In this document: positions 12,088 to 62,068 of the stretch, one piece after another
Position numbering within the stretch: position 1 is the first letter of the stretch
Layout: the number at the start of each line of letters is the position of its first letter
Source: Deltaproteobacteria bacterium
GTDB lineage: Bacteria; Desulfobacterota; Syntrophorhabdia; Syntrophorhabdales; JANXAF01
DNA: 64,000 bases
Reading direction: 5' to 3'
NCBI GenBank assembly: GCA_026417175.1
Contig: JAOADT010000004.1
Location: 29,519 to 93,518, forward strand
Position numbers and translations under genes: made by a program
The notes under the pieces: model-generated
What the model was told of the DNA's origin: nothing
The model's input: the letters and a program-made list of their open reading frames with translations, nothing else
Databases searched by the model: none

Positions 12088-12089
12088 AG

Positions 12090-12863: not shown

Positions 12864-12884
12864 ATGTAAAACATAAAACTTTTT

Positions 12885-14501: not shown

Positions 14502-14503
14502 TG

Positions 14504-15658: not shown

Positions 15659-15669
15659 ATATCCCTCCT

Positions 15670-28885: not shown

Positions 28886-28894
28886 TTACCCCCC

Positions 28895-37773: not shown

Positions 37774-38833
37774 GAAACATTCTCATTATGTCGTTGAAAA
37801 ATGCGAGAACCATTATTCCAATAAGAACACCCATTCCGATTCTCTGTGAAACTTCAATCCACCGTGGTGAAATCCTTTTTCTGGAGACAACCTCTATCAT
37901 GTGAAAAAGGATATACCCGCCATCAAGAACTGGAATCGGTAGAAGATTTATAACAGCAAGATTGACACTTATCAGTCCAAGAAAGTAAAGGAAATTCCTT
38001 TTCCCCTCTTTTGCCTGTTTTCCAGCAACTTCCATAATCATAAGCGGCCCACCAATCTCACTTGGTGAAATAACTCCCTGCAAAAGCTTCCATATTCCTA
38101 CAAGTGTGAGAAATGTGAGGTTTACGGTTTGGTTCAAACCTTTGATTACGGCTTGGGTAAATGGCTCTTTTTTAACCATGAATTCGTCTGAGGCCGTGAT
38201 TCCTATAACTTTTCTTTTTATTTTCTCTCCGAAAACGGTTTTTGATTCGACTACTTTGGGTACAAGTACAACTTCCCTAATTCCTTTCTCATCCATTACT
38301 GTGAGAGTCACACTTTCTCCCTCTTTTTTATCATTTAAAATGCCTGTTAAATCACTCCACTCTTCTACCTTTTTTCCATCTATTGCCAGGATTTTGTCTC
38401 CTTTCTTTATTCCCGCTTCATAGGCAGGATATCCCTTTTCCACATTGCCCACCTTTGTGGTTAGAACCTTATAACCAGATGCAAGTAACAGGGAAAATAC
38501 AAAAAAGGCAAAAACGAGATTTGCCAACGGCCCAGAAAATGCAATCATAAGTTTGGTTAAAGGACTTTTATGTGAATAGGACCTCGTTACATCTTCATCT
38601 CTGAGTTCCTCTTCTGGCGATTCTCCCAGGAGTTTTACGTATCCTCCTAAAGGAAAAAGAGAAATAACATACTCCGTCTCTCCCTTTTTGTAGGTTATTA
38701 ATCTTTTGCCAAAGCCTATGGAAAAAATAAGAACCTTTACATTGGAAAGTCGAGCAAATAAAAAATGACCAAGTTCGTGAACGATTATCAAAATACTAAG
38801 TGTAACCAAACCGTAGATTATACTTTGTGCCAT
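37763..38833 (-). CDS. rseP: RIP site-2 zinc metalloprotease RseP
   Basis: HELGHFLFAR (HExxH), a PDZ segment, and LLPIPVLDGG. Confidence 0.92.
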   Translation of the reverse strand: MAQSIIYGLVTLSILIIVHELGHFLFARLSNVKVLIFSIGFGKRLITYKKGETEYVISLFPLGGYVKLLGESPEEELRDEDVTRSYSHKSPLTKLMIAFSGPLANLVFAFFVFSLLLASGYKVLTTKVGNVEKGYPAYEAGIKKGDKILAIDGKKVEEWSDLTGILNDKKEGESVTLTVMDEKGIREVVLVPKVVESKTVFGEKIKRKVIGITASDEFMVKKEPFTQAVIKGLNQTVNLTFLTLVGIWKLLQGVISPSEIGGPLMIMEVAGKQAKEGKRNFLYFLGLISVNLAVINLLPIPVLDGGYILFHMIEVVSRKRISPRWIEVSQRIGMGVLIGIMVLAFFNDIMRMFHGK

Positions 38834-38837
38834 ATGT

Positions 38838-39986
38838 CTAATATCCTTTCCTTAGTAGTTCTTCCGTGTAACCCTTAGCCCAATGATAAATCTCCCAGAC
38901 AGATTCTAAATCTAATATTATCTCTTTTTTTGGGTGTCTTTCTAAGACCCTTTCTATTATAACAGGAATATCAGTAAAACGGATCTTATTCTCCAGAAAA
39001 GCGGTTGATACCACTTCGTTTGAAGTGTTGAGGGTGATCTGCGCACTATCTCCTTCTTTTAGAGCTTCATATGCAAGTTTAAGGGCCGGAAACCTATCAA
39101 CATCCGGAGGGTAGAAGGTCAGTTTCATGGCTGAATCGATTCCTAACTTTGGTAAACTAATTGCGTGCCTTTCCTCTTGGTTTAAAGCATAGGAAATAGG
39201 TATCATCATGTCAGGATAGGCCATATACGCCATAAAAGATTCATCTATAAGCTCTAGAAGTCCATGAAGGATACTCTCTGGATGTATTAGGACTTTAATA
39301 CGATCCACGTCGAAGCCAAAAAGCCACCGCGCCTCAATTACTTCTAGACCTTTATTCATTAAGGTGGCTGAATCTAATGTTATCTTTTTGCCCATCTTCC
39401 ATATAGGGTGCTTTAGTGCGTCCGCCGGTCTCACTTTTTTTAATTGATCTTTTGAAAAATCTTTAAAAGGTCCCCCCGAAGCGGTGAGTATTATGCTTTT
39501 GACCTCGTCTCTATTCACTGTTTTTAAAAGTTGGTAAAGAGCAGAGTGCTCACTGTCAACGGGTATAAGTTTAGCTTTATATTTTTCCAGATACTCTCTA
39601 ACAATTCTACCCGCCATGACTACGCTTTCTTTATTAGCCAATGCAAGGACAGTTCCAATTTTTAGTGCTTCCATAGTGGGAATAAGTCCCGTACTTCCAG
39701 GCAGAGCATTAACAACTATATCAGGGCCTGCATGGATCATTTCTTTAAGCCCATCCAAACCTAGTAGAATTTTAAATCCTTTACCCTTAATCAGCCTTTT
39801 TTTGTTTTCATCGAATACACAAACGTATCTAGGTCTAAACCTCTCAATCTGCTCATTTAAAGTTTTTACGTTTTCTTTGCATGAAAGTCCGAGCACTTCG
39901 AATCGGTCTTTTTGCTCGTCAATAACTCTTAATGTGGCTTTTCCAATCGATCCAGTAGAGCCCAGTACGACGACTTTCTTTTTCAC
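38838..39986 (-). CDS. dxr: 1-deoxy-D-xylulose-5-phosphate reductoisomerase
   Basis: VVLGSTGSIGKATL, LANKESVV and PVDSEHSA. Confidence 0.95.
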   Translation of the reverse strand: MKKKVVVLGSTGSIGKATLRVIDEQKDRFEVLGLSCKENVKTLNEQIERFRPRYVCVFDENKKRLIKGKGFKILLGLDGLKEMIHAGPDIVVNALPGSTGLIPTMEALKIGTVLALANKESVVMAGRIVREYLEKYKAKLIPVDSEHSALYQLLKTVNRDEVKSIILTASGGPFKDFSKDQLKKVRPADALKHPIWKMGKKITLDSATLMNKGLEVIEARWLFGFDVDRIKVLIHPESILHGLLELIDESFMAYMAYPDMMIPISYALNQEERHAISLPKLGIDSAMKLTFYPPDVDRFPALKLAYEALKEGDSAQITLNTSNEVVSTAFLENKIRFTDIPVIIERVLERHPKKEIILDLESVWEIYHWAKGYTEELLRKGY

Positions 39987-39988
39987 TT

Positions 39989-40777
39989 TTAGGATCTCAA
40001 ACTAAGGATTTTATATAAAAATGGGGCTGTAAATATGAAGCTATCCATTCGATCCAAAATTCCGCCGTGTCCAGGAAAAATTTCAGAGGAATCTTTAATG
40101 CCCAAAAATCTCTTTATTATGGATTCAAATAAATCACCTATCTGACCAAGCAGGCCTAAAAAGATCCCAACAACTGTGGCCGATATCAACTCAAAACCGG
40201 TTGTCCTTGAAAGAACCAAAAATACCGCAGTGCTACCCATAACTGCCCCTCCTAAACCCTCAAAGGTTTTTCCGGGACTTATGGCCGGGCACAATTTCAT
40301 CCTTCCAAAGGTTTTTCCCACAAAATAAGCTAATATATCACTCGTCCATACAGTGAAAAGCAAAACAAGTGGGTAAATCTCCTTTAACTCTTTTAGTGCG
40401 TAAATCGAGTATAAGGGAAAAATGACAAACAAAATAATGAATAAGTTGATAACTACGGTTTTCAAAATCTCAAATGGAGAATAGCTCGCTTTCTTCTCCA
40501 AAACCGCGAATATGATGAAGATACAATTCGAAAAAAGAATCCAGAGAAGAAAACTCTCGTATCTTTTAAAATAAAGAAAGAAAAAAGAAAAGACAGAAAA
40601 AGTAAGGATCGCAGCCCTCATCTTTGGTGTAGATATTTTAGTACTTTCTAAAGCTGCCAAGACTCCGACTAAAAAGATAAACAGAAAAAAAGGGAAAAGA
40701 GGCAACACGTAAAACAAGGATATTATAATAGGTCCTATAACTACGGCCGTGACAACACGTTTTTTCAGATCACCCAC
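39989..40777 (-). CDS. cdsA: Phosphatidate cytidylyltransferase
   Basis: Membrane protein with C-terminal SIIKRFLGIKDSSEIFPGHGGILDRMDS. Confidence 0.92.
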   Translation of the reverse strand: MGDLKKRVVTAVVIGPIIISLFYVLPLFPFFLFIFLVGVLAALESTKISTPKMRAAILTFSVFSFFFLYFKRYESFLLWILFSNCIFIIFAVLEKKASYSPFEILKTVVINLFIILFVIFPLYSIYALKELKEIYPLVLLFTVWTSDILAYFVGKTFGRMKLCPAISPGKTFEGLGGAVMGSTAVFLVLSRTTGFELISATVVGIFLGLLGQIGDLFESIIKRFLGIKDSSEIFPGHGGILDRMDSFIFTAPFLYKILSLRS

Positions 40778-41501
40778 TCGAATCTTCCTTCACTGTACCA
40801 AATCTTCTTTCTCTTCTCGCATAATCAGCTAATGCTTCTAAGTATTCCTTTTTTCTAAAATCTGGCCACAAAGTATCCGTTACATATATCTCGGTATATG
40901 CCATTTGATATAAGAGAAAATTGCTAACTCTTTTTTCTCCGCTTGTTCTGATGAGGAGATCGGGATCTGGAAGATCTTTAGTGTATAGATACTTCTTAAA
41001 ACTTTGCTCATCAATGTCTTCTATTTTACCCACTTTAGCGTCCTTTAATATCTCCTTTACGGCTCGTATTATTTCGCTTCTTCCACTGTAACTTAAAGCC
41101 ACTGTGAGTGTGAGCGAGCTATTTTTATCTGTCTCTTCCATAACCCATTCAATTTTTTTTTGAATATTTTCCGGAAAATCTTCAATCTCACCTATGGCTT
41201 TAAACCTAATGTTATTTTCCATAAGTAAAGGGTAATCTTTATCCAGGTACAATTCAAGAAGTTCCAAGAGCTTTCTTACCTCGCTTTCAGGTCTATTCCA
41301 GTTTTCCTTTGAAAATGCGTAGAGCGTGAGGAATGGTATATTAAGTTCTTTTGTTGTTTTTACCACCTCTCTCACTGATTCAATTCCAGTTATATGACCT
41401 TCTATTCTCGGTAGATTTCTTAATCTTGCCCATCTGCCGTTACCATCCATGATTATAGCCACATGTCTGGGCAAGTTTTTAATCTCCATCATACCAAACA
41501 A
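40770..41501 (-). CDS. uppS: Undecaprenyl diphosphate synthase (cis-isoprenyl transferase)
   Basis: HVAIIMDGNGRWA, FSKENWNRP and RTSGEKRVSNFLLYQ. The start may be one of the internal Met codons 4-5. Confidence 0.93.
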   Translation of the reverse strand: MFGMMEIKNLPRHVAIIMDGNGRWARLRNLPRIEGHITGIESVREVVKTTKELNIPFLTLYAFSKENWNRPESEVRKLLELLELYLDKDYPLLMENNIRFKAIGEIEDFPENIQKKIEWVMEETDKNSSLTLTVALSYSGRSEIIRAVKEILKDAKVGKIEDIDEQSFKKYLYTKDLPDPDLLIRTSGEKRVSNFLLYQMAYTEIYVTDTLWPDFRKKEYLEALADYARRERRFGTVKEDSSG

Positions 41502-41504
41502 CAG

Positions 41505-42062
41505 TTAAATCTCTAAAATTTCTTTCTCCTTTTCCGCATAAGCCTTTTCCGCCATTTCTATGTATTTGTCCGTAATCTTTTGGACCGCTTCTTGCTTTTT
41601 GAAAAGATCATCCTTAGAGATGATTTTGTCCTTTTCCATTTTCTTTAACTTTTCGTTCATATCTCTTCTTATATTCCTCATGGCAACCCGAGCGTTTTCT
41701 AACATTTTCCCCCCTTGCTTTGTGAGTTCCCGCCTTCTTTCTTCTGTTAGTCTTGGCAAGATTATTCTTATAACCTTTCCGTCAGATACAGGATTCACCC
41801 CCAAGTCCGATTTTTGAATAGCTCTTTCGATCTCTCCAATTATCGATGTATCCCACGGTTGAATCACGATGGTTCTGCTGTCAGGAACAGAAAGAGAAGC
41901 TACCTGGTTTATGGGTGTAGGTTGGTTATAATAGGTGATCCGGATATCATCCAGTAAAGAGACAGATGCAACACCTGTCCTTAAACGTGAAAGATCTTTT
42001 TTGAGAGCTTCAAGAGATTTCTTTAATTTACTTTCTAGTTCTTCTATTATTTCGTCCTTCAT
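41505..42062 (-). CDS. frr: Ribosome recycling factor
   Basis: 185 aa; LSRLRTGVASVSLLD and PRLTEERRRELTK. Confidence 0.95.
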   Translation of the reverse strand: MKDEIIEELESKLKKSLEALKKDLSRLRTGVASVSLLDDIRITYYNQPTPINQVASLSVPDSRTIVIQPWDTSIIGEIERAIQKSDLGVNPVSDGKVIRIILPRLTEERRRELTKQGGKMLENARVAMRNIRRDMNEKLKKMEKDKIISKDDLFKKQEAVQKITDKYIEMAEKAYAEKEKEILEI

Positions 42063-42071
42063 GGAACCTCC

Positions 42072-42782
42072 CTAAGCTCTTATCGTTGTACCGATTGGTT
42101 CCTTCATTATAACTCTTTTGAGGTTTCCACTTACTTTTATGTTGAAGACTATAATAGGAATCTGTCTCTCCATTGCAAGAGTAAGTGCTGTTAAGTCTAA
42201 CACTCTAAGTTGCATTCTAAGTGCTTCCCAGTATGATATTTCTGAGTAAAATTTCGCGTCTTTGTAACTGAGTGGATCCTTATCAAACACACCATCCACT
42301 TTTGTTGCTTTAAGTACTGCTTCCGCTTCTATTTCCGATGCCCTAAGAACCGCTGCAGTGTCAGTTGAAAAGAAAGGATTTCCTGTTCCTCCTGCAAAAA
42401 TGACTACACGTCTCTTCTTTAAATCTTCTAAAATTCTCTCTCTGTTCCATGTATCTGTCACCTTCTCCACATTCAAAGCTCCGTATATTCTAGCTTCGAT
42501 ACCCTTTTTTTTCAAAAAACCCTCAAGTCCCAAAGCATTAATGTAGGTAGCAATCATTCCCATGTAGTCTGCCCTTTGTCTATCTACACCATGTTCTTCG
42601 GAGCTTATACCCCGTATAAAATTCCCCCCTCCCACAACTATACCTAGTTGGCAATTAATGCTTAAAATTTCCTGTATCTCGCCACATAGGCGTAACACAG
42701 TATCACTGTCCATCCCATGTTTTTTTTCGCCTGCCAGGACTTCCCCACTTAGTTTTAGAAGTACTCTTTTATACGTGTCCAT
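42072..42782 (-). CDS. pyrH: UMP kinase
   Basis: KRVLLKLSGE, VVGGGNFIRG, FAGGTGNPFFSTDTAA and TKVDGVFDKDP. Confidence 0.95.
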   Translation of the reverse strand: MDTYKRVLLKLSGEVLAGEKKHGMDSDTVLRLCGEIQEILSINCQLGIVVGGGNFIRGISSEEHGVDRQRADYMGMIATYINALGLEGFLKKKGIEARIYGALNVEKVTDTWNRERILEDLKKRRVVIFAGGTGNPFFSTDTAAVLRASEIEAEAVLKATKVDGVFDKDPLSYKDAKFYSEISYWEALRMQLRVLDLTALTLAMERQIPIIVFNIKVSGNLKRVIMKEPIGTTIRA

Positions 42783-42793
42783 TGTATACTTGG

Positions 42794-43399
42794 CTAATCC
42801 ATATCTGTCTCTCCCAGCTGAAACCTAACAAAACGACTTATCACGATCTTTTCCCCAGTCTTCATCATTAAATCATCCAAAAGATGCTTCACAGTTATCT
42901 CTGGATTTTTGATGAAAGCCTGCTCAAGAAGACAAACTTCCTGAAAATATTTTTCAAGCTTTCCTTCTGCGATCTTTTCCGCTATTTTCTCAGATTTTCC
43001 TGCCTCGATCGCTTGTTTACGGTATATTGCCTTTTCTTTTTCCACAACATCTGGAGGGACATCTTCTTTTTTAACATAAAGTGGCGATGAAGCTACGACT
43101 TGCATCGCTATATCCTTCGCAAAATCCTGAAACTCCTTGGTATTGGCGACAAAGTCAGTCTCACAGTTTATCTCTACCATCCCACCTATCTTTCCACCAG
43201 TGTGAATGTAAGCTGCTATAATCCCATCGCGCGCTTTCTTGGCCATTCTTTTCTGGATTTTAGCCAAACCCTTCTCTCTGAGATATTCAATGGCCTTCTC
43301 AAGATCGCCATTTGCGTGCTTTAAGGCCTCCTTACAATCCATGAGTCCTACACCAGTTCTCTCCCTTAGTATCTTGACTAGTTCCGCCTTTATCTCCAT
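42794..43399 (-). CDS. tsf: Elongation factor Ts (short form)
   Basis: LRERTGVGLMDCKEALKHANGDLEKAIEYLREKG and YIHTGGKIGGMVEINCETDFVA. Confidence 0.95.
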   Translation of the reverse strand: MEIKAELVKILRERTGVGLMDCKEALKHANGDLEKAIEYLREKGLAKIQKRMAKKARDGIIAAYIHTGGKIGGMVEINCETDFVANTKEFQDFAKDIAMQVVASSPLYVKKEDVPPDVVEKEKAIYRKQAIEAGKSEKIAEKIAEGKLEKYFQEVCLLEQAFIKNPEITVKHLLDDLMMKTGEKIVISRFVRFQLGETDMD

Positions 43400-43408
43400 G
43401 TTACCTCC

Positions 43409-44206
43409 TTAATCACGCTCGTAGTATTCTTCGTATTTCTCAAAGGTTTCATCTGCTGTACCTTCATCGATACGTGGCTTTGGTTCTATGCTTTCTGATT
43501 CCTTTCCCTCAAATTCTTGGGAATACATCATTTTTCCCTCTAGGATTGCATCGGCTATCTTCATAGTGATAAGCTTTATTGCCCTTATTGCATCGTCATT
43601 TCCGGGTATAACGAAGTCTATATCGTCTGGATCGCAGTTGGTATCCACAATCCCAACCGTAGGAATTCCCAATTTTTTGGCTTCCCTTACTGCTATATGC
43701 TCCTTTTTTGGATCTACTATGTACAGTGCCCCTGGAAGTCTGTCCATGTTTTTTATGCCACCTAAGTTTTTTTCAAGTTTCTGAATCGTTCTTTCAATAG
43801 TTATTGCTTCTTTCTTTGGAAGTTTCCTGAATACCTCACTGTTCTTTAACTCTTCCAGCCTTTTTAAGCGTTCTATACTCTTTTGAATTGTCTGAAAATT
43901 TGTCATTGTACCGCCTAACCACCTGTTGTTCACATAAAAAGCCCCACACCTTTTAGCTTCCTCCTCTATTGCCTCCTGTGCCTGCTTTTTTGTACCCACA
44001 AAAAGTATGTATTCGTTTCTTGAAGCAACATCCCGAATGAAGTTGTACGCATCCTTAAACATTTTCAATGTCTTTTGCAAATCGATTATGTATATTCCAT
44101 TCCTTGCACCAAAGATGTAAGGCTTCATTTTTGGATTCCATCTCTTAGTCTGGTGACCAAAGTGAACACCTGCTTCAAGGAGCTGCTTAATGGTGAGATT
44201 AGACAT
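43409..44206 (-). CDS. rpsB: 30S ribosomal protein S2
   Basis: [19 protein letters not shown] and VDTNCDPD, with an acidic C-terminal tail. Confidence 0.96.
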
Positions 44207-44399: not shown

Positions 44400-45479
44400 G
44401 TGGACAAGGAACTTATACAGAGATATCTAGCTTCTGAAAAAAAAGAAAGGATTAAAATTCTTGAGTCGCTTGAAAAAGAGAAAACGTATGAGACTGTTTC
44501 ACTTCTTTCGGCTTTATACGAGGCAGAAAAAGATAAGGAAGTATTGAAACTGATAAGAAGGATTATGTTTTATTTTAGGACAGCTGGCCTTAAAGTAGAA
44601 CTACCAAAAGAAAAAGGGCTCTCTGTTCTGCGACGTACCGAAAAAAAATTCTCAGCAAAAAGTTACATTTCCAATTATGACCAGGATCTCAATAGGGTTG
44701 TTTTCATTGAAACGAGTGTGAAAAAAGACCTTCTTTTTTTGACTCAAGCTTTCATTAATCTACAGGAAGGGCTACTCGAATTAAGGATGGGTGAGGCAAG
44801 AAAGGAAGAATATTCTTCATGGTTTAAGGAAAAAATCAAAATGTGGGTTAACTTACAGATGCTTTTCTCAGAGGTATCCCCGGAATACGCATATTATTTA
44901 ATAGAGGAAGGGTCCAGTAAGTCAAAAAAATTCAAAGATGAAATTTCCAATCTAAAAACGCTTATAGTGAGGCTGGATTCCAAAGAAAAAATAAGGAAAC
45001 CGGAAGATATTTACAGTCTTTACGATCGTGGTACCTTAGAAGATATGCCAATAGATCAAATACTCAACCACAGAATCTTTAAAAACTTTTTTATGAAATG
45101 GGAAAAAATTAAAAAAGATGTACTGGAATACGAAAAAATAGGAGAAGGTACAATAGTTTTACCTGAGTATCTCAAACGAGAAAAGAGAATGGAATATTTA
45201 AGGATTCTGGCAAAAAGACCGGATTTGGAATACCTGTCAAAAGATTTAAAAAGGGTTTTGGAAGATTATGCTTACATGCTAAGTTCTTCTGGGGAACACA
45301 ACTATGCAAAAGCGATAGTTAATGTTCTTAGAAAGCCAGAAATTTTTGAGGACATTTTCATATTCCTTCTCGAAAAGTCTATTCTTCACAATTCTTGTCA
45401 GGAAGAATCTCCTAGGCTTCTGGTCACACCTCAGGAATATTTTCAAAGTGCGTATGGGAAGATTTCCCCGAAAGGATAA
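44400..45479 (+). CDS. Hypothetical protein (359 aa)
   Basis: GTG start with a strong GAGGAGAAA Shine-Dalgarno, helix-rich K/E/L composition, and a 26-nt overlap of its 3' end with the rlmE start. No motif recognised. Confidence 0.6.
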   Translation: MDKELIQRYLASEKKERIKILESLEKEKTYETVSLLSALYEAEKDKEVLKLIRRIMFYFRTAGLKVELPKEKGLSVLRRTEKKFSAKSYISNYDQDLNRVVFIETSVKKDLLFLTQAFINLQEGLLELRMGEARKEEYSSWFKEKIKMWVNLQMLFSEVSPEYAYYLIEEGSSKSKKFKDEISNLKTLIVRLDSKEKIRKPEDIYSLYDRGTLEDMPIDQILNHRIFKNFFMKWEKIKKDVLEYEKIGEGTIVLPEYLKREKRMEYLRILAKRPDLEYLSKDLKRVLEDYAYMLSSSGEHNYAKAIVNVLRKPEIFEDIFIFLLEKSILHNSCQEESPRLLVTPQEYFQSAYGKISPKG

Positions 45480-53998: not shown

Positions 53999-54820
53999 AT
54001 GAATAGAAGAAAAACTTCTTCAAATTACACAAAAACAGTGCCAGCTGTTGATCAAGCATTGAAGATCCTTTTCTTTATGGCAAAAGATAAACACCCGAAG
54101 CTTTCACTTACGGAGATATGTAAAGGGGTAGGGATTCATAAGAGCAAGGGCTTCTCCATACTTAATACGCTTGCGAAATATGGACTGGTACAAAAAGATT
54201 CCGAGGACAAACAGTACGCGTTGGGATTAGGAATTCTTTCTCTGTCGAGGAAGGTTCTTGAGAATTTAGATTATAGAAGAATCGCCATGCCATATCTTGA
54301 GAAAATATCTAATTTGACAAAGGCAACTGCAATTTTTGGTGTCATTCTTGGAGAAGATTTATTCGTGGTGGCAAAAAAAGAACCGAAGAGCTCTGTACAC
54401 ATCACTATCCGCCTCGGCTACCGGTTTCACATAACTCATGGCGCCCATGGAAAAGCTATAGCTGCCTTTCTTGAAGAAAAAGAACTTTTATCTTTGATAA
54501 AAAAAAGAAAAACATATTTTTTTGGCAACCAGACAGTGCTAGATAAGGATAGGCTTATGTCAGAAATAAGAGAATGCCGAAAAAAGGGTTTCGCTTACGA
54601 CATAGGCGAACTTCATCCGGGTATCTCTGCTATTTCATCTCCTGTTTTCGACTCGAAAAACACTCCTATAGGTGTGCTGATAATACTCGGTACCTTAGAA
54701 AAAGAAAAGATGGAAGATTTCGGAAGGATAGTCCACGAGGCCGCACGGGATTTTTCCTTGGAGCTCGGTGCGGACTTAAAAAAGACTTACGAAAAATATG
54801 CAAATTTAGCAAGGGAGTGA
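53999..54820 (+). CDS. IclR-family transcriptional regulator
   Basis: N-terminal wHTH VPAVDQALKILFFMAKDKHPKLSLTEICKGVGIHKSKGFSILNTL and a C-terminal IclR effector domain (ISAISSPVF); 273 aa. Confidence 0.88.
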   Translation: MNRRKTSSNYTKTVPAVDQALKILFFMAKDKHPKLSLTEICKGVGIHKSKGFSILNTLAKYGLVQKDSEDKQYALGLGILSLSRKVLENLDYRRIAMPYLEKISNLTKATAIFGVILGEDLFVVAKKEPKSSVHITIRLGYRFHITHGAHGKAIAAFLEEKELLSLIKKRKTYFFGNQTVLDKDRLMSEIRECRKKGFAYDIGELHPGISAISSPVFDSKNTPIGVLIILGTLEKEKMEDFGRIVHEAARDFSLELGADLKKTYEKYANLARE

Positions 54821-54824
54821 AACA

Positions 54825-57251
54825 ATGAATCAGGAAGGGTTCCATATTATAAGAACAACTACCTGGTCCGCAGGACCGGGTTGCCACGGTGGATGTGGCG
54901 TTATTGCGTATGTAAAGGATGGAAAGTTGATTAAAGTAGAGGGAGATCCAGACCATCCGTGGAACCAGGGAAGGCTTTGTGCAAGGGCTTTAGCAATGAA
55001 ACAGTATGTTTATCATCCAAAAAGATTGAAAAAGCCTTTAGTAAGAAAAGGGCAGAGAGGAGAAGGAAAATGGGAGGAAGTTTCATGGGATTTCGCTTAT
55101 GACCTAATTGAAAAAAGGATGAAAAAGATCAGAGACGAGTTTGGTCCAGAAAGTTTTATCTTTGCGATGGGCACAGGTCGGGACATAGGCCCATGGATAT
55201 GTATGTTAGCTTATGCATACGGAAGTCCAAACGTCATGTTTGCCTTGAGTGGAAACGCTTGTTACAGTCCGCGCATAGCTGCACTAGATACGTTCCAAGG
55301 AGACTACTGTGTTTTCGATGCTGGTCAGTGGTTTGAGAAAAGATACGATGATCCAAGATTTGTTCGTCCAGAGTGTATGATTATATGGGGCTATAACATA
55401 CATTCTACCTGTCCGGATAACCTTTTTGGCCACTGGATCGTGGACTTGATGAAAAAGGGAACGAAAATAATTGTAGTTGATCCAAGACTAACATGGTTTT
55501 CTTCAAGGGCTGAAATTTGGCTCAGAGTTAGACCCGGTACTGATTCTGCGCTTGCCCTTGGTTTATTACATGTAATAGTAAAGGAGGAACTCTTCGATCG
55601 TACGTTTTTGGAAAGATGGACCAATGCCTTTTTACTTCTTCGAACTGACAAAAACGTGCTTTTACGCGAAAGTGATCTTATCCCGAACGGGAAACGTGAG
55701 AACTTTGTCGTATGGGATAAGAATTCTGAAAGAGTTGCTTTCTGGGATACAGAAAAACTTGAATTTAGGCCGGCTTCTACTACCCCCTCCTTTTCGTGCG
55801 AGATTGATCTCGCATGTGTAGACGGAAATACAGTTCGATGCCACACGGTATGGGATGCATTCAGAAAAAGAGTAATGGAATATGATCCTTCCACTGTTGA
55901 GAAGATAACAGGTGTTCCCAAAGAAGATGTAATCAGAGCCGCAAGAATGTATGCAAAAAGTAAACCTGCCTCCATTCATTGGGGAGTGCCAATAGATATG
56001 ACACCTAATGTTACACCTCTTTGTCACGCAATTGCTTGTCTTTGGGCTCTCACTGGGAATTTGGATGTGCCGGGCGGAAATGTTGTGGCCCGTTTTGCTT
56101 TTGACGCTGTGGCATATGCCCTCCCAGGGGCTGAAGGTATAATACGCCTCAAATCGAAAGAGCAGGATATACCTAGAATCGGAAGGGAAAAATACGGACC
56201 TTTCCAAAAATTTATCTGGAGATGTCAGACTGATACCGCCTTTGAGCAGATATTTTCCGAAAAACCTTATCCAATTAAGGGAATGTGGATACAGACGTTA
56301 AATCCCTTGGCCGGCATAGGCATGGATCCAAAAAGGTGGAGAGAGGCTCTTCTCAAAATGGATTTCGTAGTGGGTGTTGATCTTTTCATGACTCCGACGC
56401 TTATGTACGCAGACGTAATTTTGCCGGCAGCGACCTTCCTTGAAAAGGAAGGGATAAGATCCTGGTGGGTTCCACTACAGAGCATAAACAAAGCCTTAAC
56501 AGTAGACGAATGTAAATCCGATGCTGAGATAAACTTTGAGCTAGCTAAGAGATTTGATCCTGAATTCAGATGGAAATCTTTGGAGGAACTATTTGATGAA
56601 ATCATAAAACCCTCAGGCCTAACTTACAAGGAATTAAAAGAAAGAGTGTGGGTTTTACCGACTGAGGGACACCCAAGTCATCCGTACTTGCGTCACGAAA
56701 AAGGTCTTTTAAGAAAAGATAGAAAGCCTGGTTTCCAAACACCAACGGGAAGATTTGAACTCTATTCAGTCTTGAGAGAGGAATGGGGTTACGAACCGCT
56801 TCCCATTCATGAAGAGCCACCTTTCACGCCTGTTTCTAGGCCAGACCTTACAAAGGATTATCCGTTGATACTCTCAACGGGAAGAAGGTCTCCGGCTTAT
56901 TTCCATTCGGAACATAGGATGATACCGTGGCTGAGAAGTATAGACCCAGATCCGGTCGTAGAAGTACATCCCAATACCGCAAAAAAATACGGGATTGCCG
57001 ATGGAGAATGGGTATACGTAGAAAACTGGATGGGGAAGGCAAAATTTAGGGCAAAAGTAACACCCATTGTACCCGAATGGATGGTCATGGCAACCCATGG
57101 TTGGTGGTTTCCTGAGAAAAATCCAGAGGAACCCGAACTTTTCGGAGTTTGGGAGTCTAATATTAATCTTCTAATCCCCATGGGTCAACACGGAAAAGAT
57201 GGACTCGGTGCACCCATAAAACATTTGCTGTGCAAAATTTATAGAGCTTAG
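54825..57251 (+). CDS. Cytoplasmic molybdopterin/tungstopterin (bis-PGD) oxidoreductase, catalytic subunit, acetylene-hydratase-like clade, substrate unknown
   Basis: 808 aa with no twin-arginine signal. N-terminal FeS region WSAGPGCHGGCGVIAYVKDGKLIKVEGDPDHPWNQGRLCAR. Putative metal-ligand region SGNACYSPR. The C-terminal third (DYPLILSTGRR...DPDPVVEVHPNTAKKYGIADGEWVYVEN...GAPIKHLLCKIYRA) aligns by eye with the acetylene hydratase C-terminus. Confidence 0.85.
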   Translation: MNQEGFHIIRTTTWSAGPGCHGGCGVIAYVKDGKLIKVEGDPDHPWNQGRLCARALAMKQYVYHPKRLKKPLVRKGQRGEGKWEEVSWDFAYDLIEKRMKKIRDEFGPESFIFAMGTGRDIGPWICMLAYAYGSPNVMFALSGNACYSPRIAALDTFQGDYCVFDAGQWFEKRYDDPRFVRPECMIIWGYNIHSTCPDNLFGHWIVDLMKKGTKIIVVDPRLTWFSSRAEIWLRVRPGTDSALALGLLHVIVKEELFDRTFLERWTNAFLLLRTDKNVLLRESDLIPNGKRENFVVWDKNSERVAFWDTEKLEFRPASTTPSFSCEIDLACVDGNTVRCHTVWDAFRKRVMEYDPSTVEKITGVPKEDVIRAARMYAKSKPASIHWGVPIDMTPNVTPLCHAIACLWALTGNLDVPGGNVVARFAFDAVAYALPGAEGIIRLKSKEQDIPRIGREKYGPFQKFIWRCQTDTAFEQIFSEKPYPIKGMWIQTLNPLAGIGMDPKRWREALLKMDFVVGVDLFMTPTLMYADVILPAATFLEKEGIRSWWVPLQSINKALTVDECKSDAEINFELAKRFDPEFRWKSLEELFDEIIKPSGLTYKELKERVWVLPTEGHPSHPYLRHEKGLLRKDRKPGFQTPTGRFELYSVLREEWGYEPLPIHEEPPFTPVSRPDLTKDYPLILSTGRRSPAYFHSEHRMIPWLRSIDPDPVVEVHPNTAKKYGIADGEWVYVENWMGKAKFRAKVTPIVPEWMVMATHGWWFPEKNPEEPELFGVWESNINLLIPMGQHGKDGLGAPIKHLLCKIYRA

Positions 57252-57265
57252 GAAAGGAGAATAAG

Positions 57266-57607
57266 ATGAACGAGAAAGAAGTTCATGGGATGTTGATAGA
57301 CTATGAATATTGCACAGGATGTCATACTTGCGAAGTAGCATGTGCTCAGGAATACAACTGGGAAGAGGGAGTTTCGGGGATGAAAGTTATAGAAATCGTA
57401 GAGAAACTTCCAAATGATAGATATTATCTCGTGTACCTCCCATTTCCAACGGAAGCATGTTCCCTATGCATAGGGAGAGTGAAGAAAGGCATGGAACCAC
57501 AATGTGTAAAGCACTGTATGGCTAAATGTTTAGAATTCGGGCCAGTAGAGAATCTCCTAGAAAAAATGAAAGGAAAAAAGAGGACTGTTCTTTTTAGGCC
57601 TAGATAA
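57266..57607 (+). CDS. Small 4Fe-4S ferredoxin-type subunit (half-size DmsB/PsrB-like beta subunit)
   Basis: 113 aa with CTGCHTCEVAC (CxxCxxCxxxC) and CSLC-x11-CVKHC. Starts 14 nt after the catalytic subunit. Confidence 0.8.
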   Translation: MNEKEVHGMLIDYEYCTGCHTCEVACAQEYNWEEGVSGMKVIEIVEKLPNDRYYLVYLPFPTEACSLCIGRVKKGMEPQCVKHCMAKCLEFGPVENLLEKMKGKKRTVLFRPR

Positions 57608-57620
57608 GAGCATAGAGGTT

Positions 57621-59177
57621 TTAATTTCTTAATCTATACCGAATAAGCTTGCCTGTTGTAGTCCTTGGAAGGTCACTTACAAAAGACACCCACTTAGGTG
57701 TTTTAAAATGAGCTGTCCTATTCTTTACGTGTTCGATGATTTCTTTTTCTAATTTTTCATCTGGCGTATATCCTTCATTTAGAACTACAAATGCCTTTAT
57801 CCTTAAGAGTCCTTCCTCCGAAGGAACTCCGACTACCCCACATTCCCTAACCGCGGGATGTCCCATTATTATGTTTTCTATCTCAATTGGCGAAACCCAC
57901 TGTCCGCTAACCTTTAGCATGTCGTCAGCTCGACCCTGATAATAAAAATATCCATCTTCGTCCATTAAGAATAGATCACCTGTATTAAACCATTCACCTT
58001 TTATTACCTCCTTATTTTTATCGTGTCTTCTCCAATAACCGGGGGTAACACCGTCGTTTTTAATCCATAATGTACCCACGCTTCCTTTGGGTACAGGTTT
58101 GAAATTTTCGTCTCTTAATTCTGCTTCAAATCCCGGGATGATTTTTCCGCTTGCTCCAGGCTTTTTCCGACCTTCTACATTAGCCATATAAATACCGCCT
58201 ACGTCCGTACTCCCCACCCCATCTATTATTTCGATTCCAAAAATCTTCTCCCACCTTTCGAAAACCTCCTTAGGAAGAGGTTCACCTGCAGAAATACATG
58301 TTCTAAGTGACGAAAAATCACACTTTTCTCTTTTTTCTATTTCTTTTAACAACGATATATAAAAAGTAGGAACACTGAATAGAACCGTTGGTTTTTTGGT
58401 TTCGATTATCTCTATGATCTCCTGAGGTTTCGGCCATTTTGGCCAAAGTATCACTGAGGCTCCATAAAGAAGAGGTATTTCAAGTGATGCATTTCTTCCA
58501 TATGAGAAAAACATTTTGGATGTTGCAAATATGAGATCTTTTTCTCTTATTCCAAGAATGTACTCGGAAAAAGGTGGTATGTAGTAAATAATATCGTGAT
58601 GGAGGTGAACTACGGCCTTTGGAAGCCCTGTTGTACCTGAAGTATACATCCAGAATGCCATATCATCCTTTGATGTGGGTTCTGTCTCAAGAATTGAAGA
58701 AGAGGCGTGTAAAAGCTCCGAATAACTCAGAGTTTCTTTCTTAGGTTCTCCTACAACTACCACGTGTTTCAGAAAAGGAACTTCATTCCTTAAGTCTTTT
58801 AACTTTTCGTAAAGTTCTGACTCTATAAATAGGACCTTTGCCCTTGAATCTTTAAGAAAAAAAAGATAATCCTTGGGAGAGGCCAACGTATTTACAGGGA
58901 TAGGTATTGCTCCGATCTTCATTGTCCCGAGGTAGGTAGCCACGAATTCTGGCGAATCGTTAAGAACGATAAGAACCCGGTTTTCTGGTTCTATACCGAT
59001 GTTCTTCAAGGCATTTCCCAGTTTATTTGCCATCATGTGCAAATTCTCGTAGGTTATAATATCATTCCCATAGACAATTGCCTGATTTTTCCCTCTTTTT
59101 TCCTTGATGTGTCTTTCGAGAAGAACTTCTACCTGGTTAAAAATCTCTGGTACTTCGAAACCTATAAGTGAGATCAC
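57621..59177 (-). CDS. Aryl-CoA ligase of the benzoate / 4-hydroxybenzoate-CoA ligase family (AMP-forming)
   Basis: P-loop YTSGTTGLPKAVVHLHHD. The N-terminal pattern NQVEVLLERH...GKNQAIVYGNDIITYENLHMMANKLGNALKNIGIEPENRV...DSPEF...GTMKIGAIPIPVNT is typical of the benzoate-CoA ligase family. C-terminal PRTTTGKL. Confidence 0.8.
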   Translation of the reverse strand: MISLIGFEVPEIFNQVEVLLERHIKEKRGKNQAIVYGNDIITYENLHMMANKLGNALKNIGIEPENRVLIVLNDSPEFVATYLGTMKIGAIPIPVNTLASPKDYLFFLKDSRAKVLFIESELYEKLKDLRNEVPFLKHVVVVGEPKKETLSYSELLHASSSILETEPTSKDDMAFWMYTSGTTGLPKAVVHLHHDIIYYIPPFSEYILGIREKDLIFATSKMFFSYGRNASLEIPLLYGASVILWPKWPKPQEIIEIIETKKPTVLFSVPTFYISLLKEIEKREKCDFSSLRTCISAGEPLPKEVFERWEKIFGIEIIDGVGSTDVGGIYMANVEGRKKPGASGKIIPGFEAELRDENFKPVPKGSVGTLWIKNDGVTPGYWRRHDKNKEVIKGEWFNTGDLFLMDEDGYFYYQGRADDMLKVSGQWVSPIEIENIIMGHPAVRECGVVGVPSEEGLLRIKAFVVLNEGYTPDEKLEKEIIEHVKNRTAHFKTPKWVSFVSDLPRTTTGKLIRYRLRN

Positions 59178-59186
59178 CTTGACTCC

Positions 59187-60488
59187 TTACTTCACAAAAG
59201 ATGGGAGAAATGTAGCAATTGGCGGATAAAATAGAATTATGATTGAGGCAACTATCATAGCAACCAGAAATGGAAAAATACCTTTAAAAATCTGTTCGAG
59301 AGGAACCTCTTTCGCTATCCCTTTAATTACGTAAACGTTCACTCCAACAGGAGGTGTAATAACCCCCATACAGGTAACAAGCACGATAATAACACCAAAC
59401 CATATGGGATCGTAGCCTAGATGCAACACTATCGGAAAAAGTATGGGAATGGTAAGTATGATAAGGGGTATAGCATCTATGAAACAACCGCCGATTAAGT
59501 AAATGAAAATAATAATCAACATGATCAAATATGGTGGAACCTGTAAAGAAGACACCCAACTTGAAATCATGACAGGAATTTTAGAAACGGTTATAAAACG
59601 TCCAAAAACAGTTGCGCAAGCAATGATTGTCAAGATCATACAAGAAGTTCTTAGCGCTTCCCGAGTATTCTGTACAAAAGAATCCCATGTAATCTCTCTT
59701 CTTATGAGGCCAAGGATAAGTGCGCCGGCCGCACCTATACCTCCTGCTTGCGTAGGCGTAAAAAAGCCAAATAAAAGCCCTCCTACAACCAGCACAAAAA
59801 GTCCAACAGCATCGAGAATTTTAAGACAAGCGACAACCTTTTCTTTGAAAGTCGATTTTTCTCCTTCTGGGCCGTAGGACGGATTTCGATAGCATATAAT
59901 TAAGACTGCTACACTCATGAGGGTGGCAAGAAGAATACCTGGAAGAATACCAGATATGAAAAGCTTTCCTATGGATTGTTCGGTCATGAAACCATAAATG
60001 AGAAATATAACACTAGGAGGTATAAGTATCCCTAAGCTTCCAGCCGAAGCAATACATCCGGTAGCTAAGGTATCATCATATCCGTATTTCTTCATGGCTG
60101 GTAGGGCAAGCTTGCCCATCGTGGCAGCCGTTGCAGTTGAAGAACCACATATAGCACCAAAAGCAGCGCAGGCAAATATAGAAGCTATCGCTAGACCACC
60201 TTTTATATGTCCGAACACTTTATAAGCTGCATCGTAAAGTCTCGAGCCGAGACCTGCCGAGAAAGCGTAATATCCCATGAGAATAAACATGGGGATTGCG
60301 CTTATGGAATACGACGTAAGTTGTTCGAATATGTTCCTTGGAAGAACTGCTAATCCTGTTTTTAACGAAGTCACATAAGAAAATCCCACAAACCCAACAA
60401 ATGCCATAGAAAAAGCAATCGGCATCCTTATTACAAAAAATGCGACAAGAATTACAATTCCCAAAATTCCTGCCATTTCAGGACTCAT
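59187..60488 (-). CDS. TRAP transporter large permease (DctM)
   Basis: 433-aa polytopic membrane protein, immediately downstream of the small permease with a 4-nt overlap. Confidence 0.88.
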   Translation of the reverse strand: MSPEMAGILGIVILVAFFVIRMPIAFSMAFVGFVGFSYVTSLKTGLAVLPRNIFEQLTSYSISAIPMFILMGYYAFSAGLGSRLYDAAYKVFGHIKGGLAIASIFACAAFGAICGSSTATAATMGKLALPAMKKYGYDDTLATGCIASAGSLGILIPPSVIFLIYGFMTEQSIGKLFISGILPGILLATLMSVAVLIICYRNPSYGPEGEKSTFKEKVVACLKILDAVGLFVLVVGGLLFGFFTPTQAGGIGAAGALILGLIRREITWDSFVQNTREALRTSCMILTIIACATVFGRFITVSKIPVMISSWVSSLQVPPYLIMLIIIFIYLIGGCFIDAIPLIILTIPILFPIVLHLGYDPIWFGVIIVLVTCMGVITPPVGVNVYVIKGIAKEVPLEQIFKGIFPFLVAMIVASIIILFYPPIATFLPSFVK

Positions 60489-60967
60489 CTTTTCATCCTC
60501 ACGTTTTTTACTAATTCAATAATGTAATACAGAATTACAGGAACCAAGCTTATGGCGAACGCATACGCTAAGGGATAAAGCGGTAATTTTAAGACAGAAC
60601 CCATTTCGCCTGATATCTGCAAAGATTTAGCATACTTTAGTCCGTAAATGAATAAAATAAAGAATAACGTGAGACAACAGAGAGATACAAAAGTGTCCAG
60701 AATTTTTTTGATCGAAAAAGGTAATTTATCCGCAATAAACTCAATTTTAAGATGAGTTCCAAGGTAAAGACCGAAAGCAATTGCGAAAGATATGGCTACA
60801 ACCTGAGCAAAACTTATTATTTCTAAAGCCCCGGGCAGGGGCCATCCAAAAAATTTTGCACCTACAACATCAACAAGGTTAGCAAAAAACATTACCAGGA
60901 AAAAAATGGCCCCTATCCCTTCTAGATATCTACTTATATTTCGCGTGAGTTTATCGAGCCCTTCCAT
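60485..60967 (-). CDS. TRAP transporter small permease (DctQ)
   Basis: 160 aa with four hydrophobic helices, lying between the DctP and DctM genes. Confidence 0.85.
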   Translation of the reverse strand: MEGLDKLTRNISRYLEGIGAIFFLVMFFANLVDVVGAKFFGWPLPGALEIISFAQVVAISFAIAFGLYLGTHLKIEFIADKLPFSIKKILDTFVSLCCLTLFFILFIYGLKYAKSLQISGEMGSVLKLPLYPLAYAFAISLVPVILYYIIELVKNVRMKR

Positions 60968-60994
60968 CGGAAATTCCTTATCTTATTGATCTCT

Positions 60995-62068
60995 TTATTT
61001 GATCCTTACCTCGTCAGGACCCGTTGTCGATTTTATTTTTAGCTCCTTCTGTCGTTTGGTCCAATAGTCTATCCTTTCTTTTACAAACGAGATCCAACCT
61101 CTCACTTCCTTTTCCGGATACCCTGCAGAAACCATCGATTTTACGTACTTTTCGATAACTGTCTCTGCCGCCTTGATCCATCTCTTTTCTTCTTCAGGGG
61201 ACAACGTAATGAACTGAATCCCTTTCTCCTTCCCTAACTGTTTTCCATCTATATCAATTTCGTTCCACATTGTGGCTAGCTTTTCCTCAAAGGGATACTC
61301 ATTGAAGACTTTCTTCACATCGTCAGGAAGCTTCTTCCAAGTCTCTTTATTCATAACAATGTAAAAGTTATACTGTTGTCCTATACCCCAACACTCGGTT
61401 GTGTATTTTATGACTTCAGCAAACCTAAATGCTCTATACGTCTCCATTGGGATGTAGACACCGTCAACCACTTTTTTGAGAATCGCATCATAAGTTTCAG
61501 GTGTCGCTAGTCCCCTAGGGGTTGCTCCGAGTGCAGCAACAGTGTCCGCAATGTACCCAACAGCTCTAATATTTAGACCTTTTAAATCCTCAAGTTTATA
61601 AACCGGCTTTGTTGCGGTCATCATCACGTTTATTGGAGAGCTATGTAAGGTGATCACTTGCACATCATCCCATTCCTTCGGCTTAAACTTCCTATAAAAG
61701 TCATTAACTACGCGGTTTGATACCCATGCATTCGGAAAACCCAAAGGCATGTCCAAAACTTCTGTCACTTTGAATCTACCTGGCGTATAAGCTATGTGGG
61801 AAAACCCTATGTCCGCAATACCTTCAACAACACCATCGTACATTTTAGCCGGACTCAGAAGGGTTCCTGCAGCAAAGTAACTGAATTTTACTTTGCCACC
61901 AGTTCTTGCTTCAAGATCTTTTATGAACTCCTCACATATTTTCGATTGTCTAGCAACTACGGGAAAGTAATTGGCCCATTTGAGTTCGATAGCCGGGGCT
62001 GAAAGGACGGTTTTAGAAAAAAGCAAAAGTGAAGTGATCATAAATAGCAACATACCCAATTTTTTCAT
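60995..62068 (-). CDS. TRAP transporter periplasmic solute-binding protein (DctP family)
   Basis: Signal peptide MKKLGMLLFMITSLLLFSKTVLSA; ELKWANYFP...GGKVKFSYFAAGTLL is typical of DctP-type SBPs. Confidence 0.85.
   Translation of the reverse strand: MKKLGMLLFMITSLLLFSKTVLSAPAIELKWANYFPVVARQSKICEEFIKDLEARTGGKVKFSYFAAGTLLSPAKMYDGVVEGIADIGFSHIAYTPGRFKVTEVLDMPLGFPNAWVSNRVVNDFYRKFKPKEWDDVQVITLHSSPINVMMTATKPVYKLEDLKGLNIRAVGYIADTVAALGATPRGLATPETYDAILKKVVDGVYIPMETYRAFRFAEVIKYTTECWGIGQQYNFYIVMNKETWKKLPDDVKKVFNEYPFEEKLATMWNEIDIDGKQLGKEKGIQFITLSPEEEKRWIKAAETVIEKYVKSMVSAGYPEKEVRGWISFVKERIDYWTKRQKELKIKSTTGPDEVRIK

Follow-up and report, generated by a model that had tools for sequence, protein, structure and literature searches.

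A 64,000-nucleotide stretch of contig JAOADT010000004.1 (hereafter the window), from the metagenome-assembled genome (MAG) of a sulfate-reducing Desulfobacterota bacterium (GenBank assembly GCA_026417175.1), was analysed with a focus on two adjoining genes, which encode an 808-residue catalytic subunit (α) of the bis-molybdopterin guanine dinucleotide (bis-MGD) type and a 113-residue iron–sulfur subunit (β). Judged from its sequences, the pair is an environmental, sulfate-reducer member of the Gordonibacter-type catechol dehydroxylase clade, and its architecture is not new. It is also a conserved and widespread module, with more than 120 protein clusters (90% identity) that are each at least 68% identical to the window α and are hosted mostly by Desulfobacula, Desulfobacteraceae and Syntrophorhabdaceae, along with some Dehalococcoidales.

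Membership of the Gordonibacter-type clade

The Gordonibacter-type enzymes carry no signal for twin-arginine translocation (Tat) and combine a smaller α with a small 4Fe–4S partner into a likely soluble complex (Maini Rekdal et al., PMC7028382; PMC11887054; PMC11585353). This two-subunit cytoplasmic class was described in 2020 (PMC7028382) and again in 2024 (PMC11585353) and 2025 (PMC11887054), the later papers coining the name "Gordonibacter-type", and its members comprise Cldh, Dodh, Gp Hcdh and Eadh1/2 (PMC7028382, PMC11585353, PMC11887054, bioRxiv 10.1101/2025.01.17.632430). Cldh and Dodh are 45% identical (PMC7028382 supplement 2c), 3,4-dihydroxyphenylacetic acid (DOPAC) induces Dodh and its small partner together (PMC7028382 supplement 2d), and Gp Hcdh spans 770 residues, compared with 1193 for El Hcdh (PMC11585353). 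Desulfobacula was listed among the environmental carriers of putative dehydroxylases (PMC7028382). In the alignment deposited with the same study, Cldh reads ...RTTMWSGPGCHEGC...NQGRLCMRC and Dodh ...RTSVWTGPGCHNGC...NQGRLCLRC, the Eggerthella enzymes show RR leaders together with a set of four Cys, and acetylene hydratase reads C-Q-S-C-D-I-N-C.

Cldh, Dodh and a third Gordonibacter-clade sequence were transcribed from this eLife alignment for BLASTP, the transcribed Cldh being 100% identical to proteins P0121/P0122 and sharing 95% identity with a protein of Gordonibacter sp. 28C. The window α matched the three sequences in two segments with 38–49% identity and ~590–630 bits summed, compared with 268 bits (phmmer) and 26% identity for acetylene hydratase. 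Over 808 residues, α shares 66% identity with the Desulfobacula toluolica Tol2 protein of the eLife Fig. 7 alignment, a protein placed among the Gordonibacter sequences in the data of that figure, so that both the architecture and the clade membership of the family were already in print with the 2020 tree data. The β subunit is 45% identical (E 3e-29), with the same Cys pattern, to a 115-residue open reading frame (ORF) that follows the closest Gordonibacter Cldh homologue. On that Gordonibacter sp. 28C contig (L064), a major facilitator superfamily (MFS) transporter comes after the 115-residue ORF, and a GGDEF_2/HTH_30 regulator adjoins. Grouping with Cldh and Dodh, judged by identity and bits, was thus found together with a missing Tat leader, a small adjoining Fe–S partner and an α of matching size.

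No RR/Tat leader was detected on α, whose N-terminus reads MNQEGFHIIRTTTW14-S-A-G17-P-G-C20-H21-G-G-C24...G-R-L-C52-A-R54-A55, with the cluster motif starting already at residue 14. An N-terminal extension with such a leader is not possible, because the ORF is maximal, the preceding IclR gene extends to 54820, and the ATG has a GGGAG ribosome-binding site 8 nt ahead of it. The enzyme is therefore predicted to be cytoplasmic. Coordinate 54864 corresponds to the codon of W14 and not to the start of the α gene; the β gene is preceded by an AGGAG ribosome-binding site. In NCBIfam, no family scored above its cut-off for α or β, the best being PhsA (for α), formate dehydrogenase α and DmsB, all far below. 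Near the operon, Rfam yielded neither a Moco riboswitch nor any other RNA, and a promoter/terminator scan, which returned fewer promoter-like sites than in shuffled sequences, was not used.

The eight cluster Cys of β are invariant in 123 homologues, and a ninth, C88, is 91% conserved. The protein aligns to residues 4–40 and 113–148 of PsrB and to residues 4–56 and 150–197 of ArrB, and so corresponds to Cys groups I and IV of a four-cluster subunit, with groups II and III missing. In the AlphaFold2 (AF2) model of β, with a predicted local distance difference test (pLDDT) score of 82.7, the fold matched PsrB (best), FdnH and formate dehydrogenase β subunits only over long gaps, with template-modelling (TM) scores of 0.60–0.67 normalised to the query, and no solved two-cluster equivalent was found among the structure matches. 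In 56 loci, the β gene lies directly downstream of the α gene wherever downstream sequence exists. The literature on Gordonibacter-type enzymes provided no biochemical characterisation of the clusters of the small partner.

An earlier reading of this DNA (the sequence-only reading) had described a cytoplasmic enzyme without an RR motif, a partner with only the first and last Cys groups of the DmsB/PsrB fold, and a shortened electron wire. These points hold, being borne out by the position of the cluster motif within an ORF that is not extendable upstream, by the PsrB and ArrB alignments, and by a two-cluster β next to a three-Cys cluster site in α, respectively. The distinct new subfamily architecture that was also proposed falls away, as the architecture equals that of the published Gordonibacter-type two-subunit enzyme and both subunits are homologous to the Gordonibacter pair. 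The 113-residue partner largely turns out to be a common and already described one through its Gordonibacter homologue. Overall, the observation was confirmed and its interpretation partly supported.

Cluster site, probable ligand relocation and insertion of the α subunit

By alignment, the conclusion stands that the N-terminal Fe–S site of α (FS0) has just three Cys in the window protein, namely C20, C24 and C52. In HMMER alignments, G17 falls in the first-Cys column of acetylene hydratase, PsrA and FdhF, and C20, H21 and C24 are matched by Cys12, Asp13 and Cys16 of acetylene hydratase (C9-x2-C12-D13-x2-C16...C46); PsrA reads C-x2-C-x3-C. A NarG-type His (His-x3-Cys-x3-Cys spacing) was sought in α and is absent, position 16 being Ala. 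The 120 closest homologues of α are 68–100% identical to it, and in all 117 of them that cover the N-terminus G17, C20 and C24 are present, along with H21 in 116. Within the window family, both W-S-x-G-P-G-C-H-G-G-C and G-R-L-C are kept in the homologues with an N-terminus, so the motif is not a sequencing accident. A multiple alignment for the ligand columns was then computed from 120 window-family members and 114 Cldh-like proteins (234 sequences), in which C20, C24, C52 and C146 were at least 97% conserved in both groups, His21 occurred in 228 sequences, and position 17 was never Cys (217 Gly, 11 Ala, 1 Pro). Residues C146, P149 and R150 were conserved to at least 93–95% per family in this alignment and invariant in a 59-sequence alignment (A2). 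The segment NAC146YSPR aligns with SLCTAPR of PsrA (HMMER), whose Cys we take to be the Mo ligand of that enzyme. In the AF2 model of α, residues 18–20 of the cluster loop are the only segment of at least three residues with a pLDDT below 50.

With three Cys only, FS0 would be of the [3Fe-4S] type, or else a [4Fe-4S] cluster in which one ligand is solvent or a group other than Cys. Five Cys (C126, C184, C196, C563 and C803) are 97–100% conserved in the window family and not in the sister clade, and any of them may serve as a fourth ligand. Two other candidates were rejected, namely His44 as a NarG-like substitute, as the motif H-P-x-N-x-G-x-L-C also occurs in four-Cys formate dehydrogenases (e.g. 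7qv7_S), and β residue C88 as a general fourth ligand, as the Gordonibacter partners and 9% of homologues lack it. As a separate observation, the relatives P0367, P0476 and P0492, which are representatives of 50%-identity clusters, read W-S-[AP]-P-G-D-H, with Asp in the Cys20 position instead of ...P-G-C-H; P0367 reads WSAPGDHPTGAG, with the next Cys apparently lost too. FS0 may be further degraded or otherwise ligated in these lineages.

Position 55, three residues past the last ligand, is Cys in 113 of the 114 Cldh-like proteins, and in the family of the window protein, which itself has Ala, 64 sequences have Ala there, 28 have Cys and 27 have Val. A wider scan covered the best 150 representatives of 50%-identity clusters from 1.84 billion proteins. 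Here, a Cys at +3 of the last ligand was found in 14 of the 19 representatives with [G/A/P]-P-G-C-H and in none of the 69 that keep the first Cys, which show C-x-K/R followed mostly by Gly or Ala. The nominal Fisher p value of 1.4e-9 for this association ignores shared ancestry and derives from a regular expression that misplaced the register of about nine sequences, the clean count being that of 14/19 versus 0/69, and part of the signal may reflect one evolutionary event. Because the Cys at +3 accompanies loss of the first Cys and is missing from the sequences that keep it, the first-Cys ligand has probably been relocated. The simplest reading of the sequences is a move of Cys from position 1 to position 4+3 and of Gly the opposite way; most Gordonibacter-type enzymes would therefore still have four Cys.

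Both Cys are missing from the window protein, from most of its family and from a few other lineages (P0362, P0383, P0387). In a neighbour-joining tree of the window family, the sequences with Cys55 cluster in a single block, flanked by two Ala/Val groups. Tandem α–β pairs are present in Desulfobacula loci L009, L010, L011, L013, L014, L020, L022, L027 and L048 (e.g. L009:10001-15600), with Ala55 in the first copy (GRLCARAL, WSAGPGC) and Cys55 in the second (GRLCSRCL, WSPGPGC), which is ~57% identical. These tandem loci also have a class III cytochrome c gene, divergent and downstream. The link of first-Cys loss to Cys55, followed by Cys55 loss in the window branch, appears to be new and undiscussed in the literature on the class. 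It represents a natural experiment on how the FS0 ligand set tunes electron delivery to the pterin.

The sequence-only reading had placed Gly at the first-Cys position, with Cys20, Cys24 and Cys52 left and no NarG-type His, and had found His, not the Asp of acetylene hydratase, after Cys20. The numbering and all the alignments agree with this, including the pairing of H21 with Asp13, Gly17 in the first-Cys column and the conserved C20, C24 and C52 across the 234 sequences. Its view of FS0 as atypical is retained for the window protein, with its Ala55; in most relatives, Cys55 probably supplies a fourth ligand.

The AF2 model of α as a whole has a pLDDT of 91.1, and its best solved match is acetylene hydratase (2e7z; Foldseek E 1.1e-56, target-normalised TM 0.86, 26% identity), which is the closest solved structure by HMMER too (1.8e-78). 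A β-rich insertion of ~74 residues, modelled confidently as strands, occurs in the whole Desulfobacterota family, and Cldh, Dodh, acetylene hydratase and PsrA lack it; the alignment to PcrA extends into the insertion. Its start ("WTNA...LLRESD", in the general form "WTNA...LL(K/R)ESD") resembles the insertion of Eggerthella Dadh, which makes it look like an ancestral feature that the Gordonibacter branch has lost. The retained insertion appears undiscussed in the literature on the class. Neither the FS0 ligand pattern nor the proposed function changes the classification of the enzyme.

Genomic setting

Features of the α–β operon and its neighbours are listed in Table 1.

Table 1. Coordinates, within the window, of the gene pair, its predicted functional sites and the adjoining genes.
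Feature	Position	Strand	Basis or remark
IclR-family regulator	53999..54820	+	Pfam HTH_IclR + IclR_C; 4 nt upstream of α
Catalytic α gene, 808 aa, bis-MGD (Mo or W) subunit	54825..57251	+	Maximal ORF; Pfam Molybdop_Fe4S4 + Molybdopterin + Molydop_binding
FS0 motif W14-S-A-G17-P-G-C20-H21-G-G-C24	54864..54896	+	Alignments; family conservation; same motif in Cldh and Dodh
C52-A-R54-A55: last FS0 ligand, Arg at usual Lys/Arg relay position, Ala55	54978..54989	+	
Cys146, probable Mo/W ligand, motif C146-x2-P149-R150	55260..55262	+	Alignment to PsrA
β-rich insertion, ~74 aa, residues 269-342	55629..55850	+	Gapped in >80% of Cldh-like sequences
β electron-transfer gene, 113 aa, two predicted [4Fe-4S] sites (mini PsrB/DmsB)	57266..57607	+	14 nt past α stop
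β Cys group I, C16-x2-C19-x2-C22-x3-C26	57311..57343	+	100% conserved, 123 sequences
β Cys group IV, C65-x2-C68-x11-C80-x3-C84, plus C88 (x3 after C84)	57458..57529	+	First four 100% conserved
Aryl-carboxylate CoA ligase, benzoate-CoA ligase family	57621..59177	-	Convergent with pair; TIGR02262 506 bits (cut-off 375)
TRAP transporter: DctM 59187-60488, DctQ 60485-60967, DctP 60995-62068	59187..62068	-	Pfam

The ligase, which uses coenzyme A (CoA), also scored 439 bits with the HbdA model, below its cut-off, and its best PDB matches are anthranilate-CoA and benzoate-CoA ligases. Fifty-six related genome loci were compared, mostly from Desulfobacula and other Desulfobacteraceae, plus Syntrophorhabdaceae and one Acidobacteriota MAG. 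An IclR gene lies directly upstream of the pair in 12 of these loci and a divergent MarR gene in 14. Transporters of the tripartite ATP-independent periplasmic (TRAP), Liv-type ATP-binding cassette (ABC) and MFS kinds are frequent, TRAP genes being near the pair in ~13 loci, and AMP-ligases occur in 13. An old yellow enzyme (OYE) reductase, with 2-naphthoyl-CoA reductase as its closest solved relative, is found downstream in 10 loci, together with acyl-CoA dehydrogenase and 3-hydroxyacyl-CoA dehydrogenase. Several arrangements can be distinguished: IclR-α-β, often with a second α–β pair and with aconitase and malic enzyme ahead; a divergent MarR gene with α-β, OYE reductase, AMP-ligase, acyl-CoA dehydrogenase, TRAP and 3-hydroxyacyl-CoA dehydrogenase; MarR-α-β followed by a Liv-type ABC transporter; and IclR-MFS-α-β in Desulfonema magnum. 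What they share is the theme of a regulator that responds to a ligand, an importer of organic acids and, in many cases, enzymes of CoA esters, which resembles the regulator–transporter–enzyme layout of Gordonibacter. The module extends to Archaea, with a 34%-identical homologue in a Bathyarchaeia MAG (L057:3457-5916) and a small Fe–S partner from Bathyarchaeia (P0351) that is 61% identical to the 113-residue protein.

The operon belongs to the core chromosome, because housekeeping blocks are found in the window, namely rsmH (MraW methylase) at the end of an apparent dcw/mur cluster with a Mur ligase gene (12000-30200, minus strand) and rpsB-tsf-pyrH-frr-uppS-cdsA-dxr-rseP (37700-44200, minus strand). 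Base composition gave no sign of an island, with a GC content of 0.41–0.43 compared with 0.35–0.43 elsewhere.

At a distance of 19 kb from the pair, positions 33346-37100 (plus strand) encode a molybdenum enzyme of the xanthine-oxidase family, which is a second, unrelated candidate aromatic dehydroxylase. It comprises a 928-residue fusion of a 2x[2Fe-2S] domain with the molybdenum-cofactor-binding subunit and, next to it, a 323-residue flavin adenine dinucleotide (FAD) subunit, whose best NCBIfam match is 4-hydroxybenzoyl-CoA reductase β over its full length (153 bits, below cut-off). The FAD subunit has a Cys-rich insertion (CQDIRC...ICLRKGGKTC...KRCYAVC), which we presume to be akin to the extra [4Fe-4S] loop of 4-hydroxybenzoyl-CoA reductase. 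A tRNA-Sec gene (31606-31697, minus strand; RF01852, 70.5 bits) is the sole Rfam match in the window and implies that the organism uses selenocysteine; the dehydroxylase-like α has Cys146, not Sec, at the metal position. A HycI-type hydrogenase maturation protease (30939-31406) adjoins the tRNA gene. Two further ORFs gave no Pfam match at E<=1e-5: one of 254 residues (27828-28592, minus strand; Pfam scan only), and one of 359 residues (44400-45479, plus strand), which had no NCBIfam match either, overlaps the start of an FtsJ-like methyltransferase and may be mis-started.

Proposed reaction, alternatives and comparison with known systems

On balance, the pair is probably a soluble cytoplasmic α–β bis-MGD reductive dehydroxylase of the Gordonibacter-type clade, acting on a hydroxylated aromatic acid. 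This proposal follows from the homology of both subunits to the Gordonibacter pair and from the match between the theme of regulator, acid importer and CoA-ester enzyme and the Gordonibacter layout. The sequences show this homology, the missing Tat leader, the Cys sets and the gene neighbourhoods, and from them we infer which way electrons flow, the class of substrate, what FS0 is, and what His21 and Cys146 do. The substrate, an aromatic carboxylic acid with ring hydroxyls that is most likely a catechol, would enter through the adjoining TRAP transporter and induce the operon through the IclR regulator. A cytoplasmic low-potential donor would reduce the two [4Fe-4S] clusters of β, from which electrons would pass to FS0 of α (C20, C24, C52) and on through Arg54 and the pterin to the metal held by Cys146. 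The metal would then remove one ring hydroxyl as water, the likely proton donor being His21, which takes the place of acetylene hydratase's catalytic Asp13. The adjoining enzyme of the benzoate-CoA ligase family would make the CoA ester of the product, which would feed into the anaerobic benzoyl-CoA route. Substrates of the protocatechuate type are attractive, as sulfate and nitrate reducers reportedly break down protocatechuate anaerobically by way of a dehydroxylation to the 3-hydroxybenzoyl level, in which protocatechuate is first converted to protocatechuyl-CoA and then reductively dehydroxylated to 3-hydroxybenzoyl-CoA (summarised in PMC4585845). A literature search found no gene assignment for the protocatechuate dehydroxylation step in sulfate reducers. 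With this function, the pair would carry a gut-microbiome enzyme class over to marine and freshwater sulfate reducers and would be a gene candidate for the reductive dehydroxylation of lignin-derived hydroxy-aromatic acids in anoxic sediments.

Several points weigh against this proposal. Catechol chemistry is an extrapolation, given that identity to the characterised enzymes is about 40–45% and substrates differ widely within the Gordonibacter clade, and the 74-residue insertion and the missing Cys55 set the window family apart from those enzymes. The literature search returned no substrate or experimental data for the Desulfobacterota family, including the Desulfobacula and Desulfonema homologues. 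In addition, the metal may be either Mo or W. Among the related loci, an adjacent aryl-CoA ligase as in the window recurs only in L001, and the aconitase and malic enzyme context of the Desulfobacula loci is not obviously aromatic.

The same type of enzyme could act on an aryl-CoA thioester supplied by a ligase working first (e.g. protocatechuyl-CoA to 3-hydroxybenzoyl-CoA), which we deem unlikely. The protocatechuyl-CoA step is the one reported for nitrate and sulfate reducers (PMC4585845), the enzyme is predicted to reside in the cytoplasm, the pair has CoA ligases close by both in the window and in 13 loci, and about ten loci hold CoA-ester enzymes (an OYE like 2-naphthoyl-CoA reductase, acyl-CoA dehydrogenase, 3-hydroxyacyl-CoA dehydrogenase and thioesterase), but the characterised relatives all use free catechols, not thioesters (PMC7028382, PMC11887054). 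Many loci, moreover, are without a ligase, and the window has its own candidate of the 4-hydroxybenzoyl-CoA reductase type. In Thauera, it is a promiscuous 4-hydroxybenzoyl-CoA reductase that performs the protocatechuyl-CoA step. It is more doubtful still that the substrate is a non-aromatic oxygenated organic acid or another oxo-substrate of a cytoplasmic reductase, with the aromatic-looking neighbours being coincidental. Against the benzoate-CoA ligase family cut-off passed by the window ligase, the aryl-CoA reductase as nearest relative of the recurrent OYE neighbour, and the IclR and MarR regulators, which are typical of aromatic-acid operons, this alternative can set the aconitase and malic enzyme beside the pair in Desulfobacula-type loci, the many kinds of acid carried by TRAP, Liv-type ABC and MFS systems, and the ~55–60% divergence of the family from any tested enzyme.

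Reversed electron flow, which would make the enzyme a water-dependent hydroxylase or dehydrogenase acting on an (aromatic) acid, with β carrying electrons off the metal, is equally doubtful. The direction is unreadable from sequence, the bis-MGD superfamily includes anaerobic hydroxylases, and acetylene hydratase is followed by perchlorate reductase and ethylbenzene dehydrogenase in the ranking of structural matches; a three-Cys FS0, if a higher-potential [3Fe-4S] cluster, would furthermore parallel that of an oxidase, arsenite oxidase. All of the closest characterised relatives are, however, reductases, the hydroxylases known in the superfamily are periplasmic enzymes of other clades that have four-cluster β subunits of the NarH type, and no gene for a high-potential acceptor adjoins the pair. 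A non-redox hydratase with Fe–S clusters for structure or redox poising only is highly improbable, even though acetylene hydratase, the closest solved structure, keeps a redox-inactive cluster and a Cys-ligated metal. Its Asp13 is replaced by His in the window α, the sequence is much nearer to the dehydroxylases, and the 56 loci show strict co-inheritance of a two-cluster subunit for electron transfer, a kind of partner that acetylene hydratase lacks. The expectation of the sequence-only reading that the chemistry differs from acetylene hydration is thus likely to be correct, since the closest characterised relatives are reductive catechol dehydroxylases.

A broader and rather speculative extension of the dehydroxylase proposal, to which we give little credence at present, is that the abundant Desulfobacterota/Chloroflexota family supplies the cytoplasmic dehydroxylase by which strict anaerobes funnel protocatechuate-type lignin monomers to the benzoyl-CoA pathway, and that its main branch, the window protein included, has an FS0 with just three protein ligands ([3Fe-4S] or open-corner [4Fe-4S]). 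To our knowledge, a [3Fe-4S] FS0 is found among bis-MGD enzymes only in arsenite oxidase. If the extension were true, position 55 would be a natural Cys/Ala/Val switch between two cluster types in one family.

Among known systems, 4-hydroxybenzoyl-CoA reductase of the xanthine-oxidase family is a functional analogue, which removes a phenolic hydroxyl reductively in the cytoplasm of anaerobes, with an unrelated fold and unrelated cofactors (molybdopterin cytosine dinucleotide, FAD and 2Fe-2S). The respiratory PsrABC, PhsABC and DmsABC enzymes share the C-x2-P-R metal motif, as in PsrA, and provide the best NCBIfam match of α (PhsA, far below cut-off), but the window enzyme has neither a Tat leader nor Cys groups II and III in β, and a membrane-anchor gene of the NrfD/DmsC type was not found among the window neighbours (Pfam). 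It thus falls outside the canonical α–β–γ respiratory enzymes of the dimethyl sulfoxide (DMSO) reductase family, and also outside the NarG-type (type II) enzymes, with Ala16 in place of His and Cys146, not Asp, at the metal position. Acetylene hydratase from Pelobacter acetylenicus (2e7z) is similar in its cytoplasmic location, Cys-ligated metal and N-terminal cluster domain, and differs by its four cluster Cys (C9, C12, C16, C46) and Asp13, where the window α has Gly17 and His21, as well as by its single subunit, non-redox reaction and lack of the 74-residue insertion. The Eggerthella-type enzymes (Dadh, Hcdh, Cadh) belong to the same wider clade near acetylene hydratase and have an insertion after "WTNA" like residues 269–342. 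In contrast to the window pair, they possess RR Tat leaders, a four-Cys FS0 (C-C-R-G-C...G-K-M-E-C), a length of ~1000–1200 residues, a four-cluster β and a membrane anchor.

The Gordonibacter-type enzymes, finally, have in common with the window pair an α of ~770–800 residues without a Tat leader (808 in the window), the FS0 motif [GA]-P-G-C-H-x1-2-G-C...G-R-L-C, the C146-x2-P-R motif, and a transporter and substrate-responsive regulator adjoining the pair. They differ in their hosts, which are gut Coriobacteriia rather than a sulfate-reducing Desulfobacterota MAG, in their Cys55 and missing insertion, where the window α has Ala55 and 74 additional β-rich residues, and in their neighbours, which are MFS transporters and differing substrate-specific regulators instead of TRAP, aryl-CoA ligase and IclR genes.

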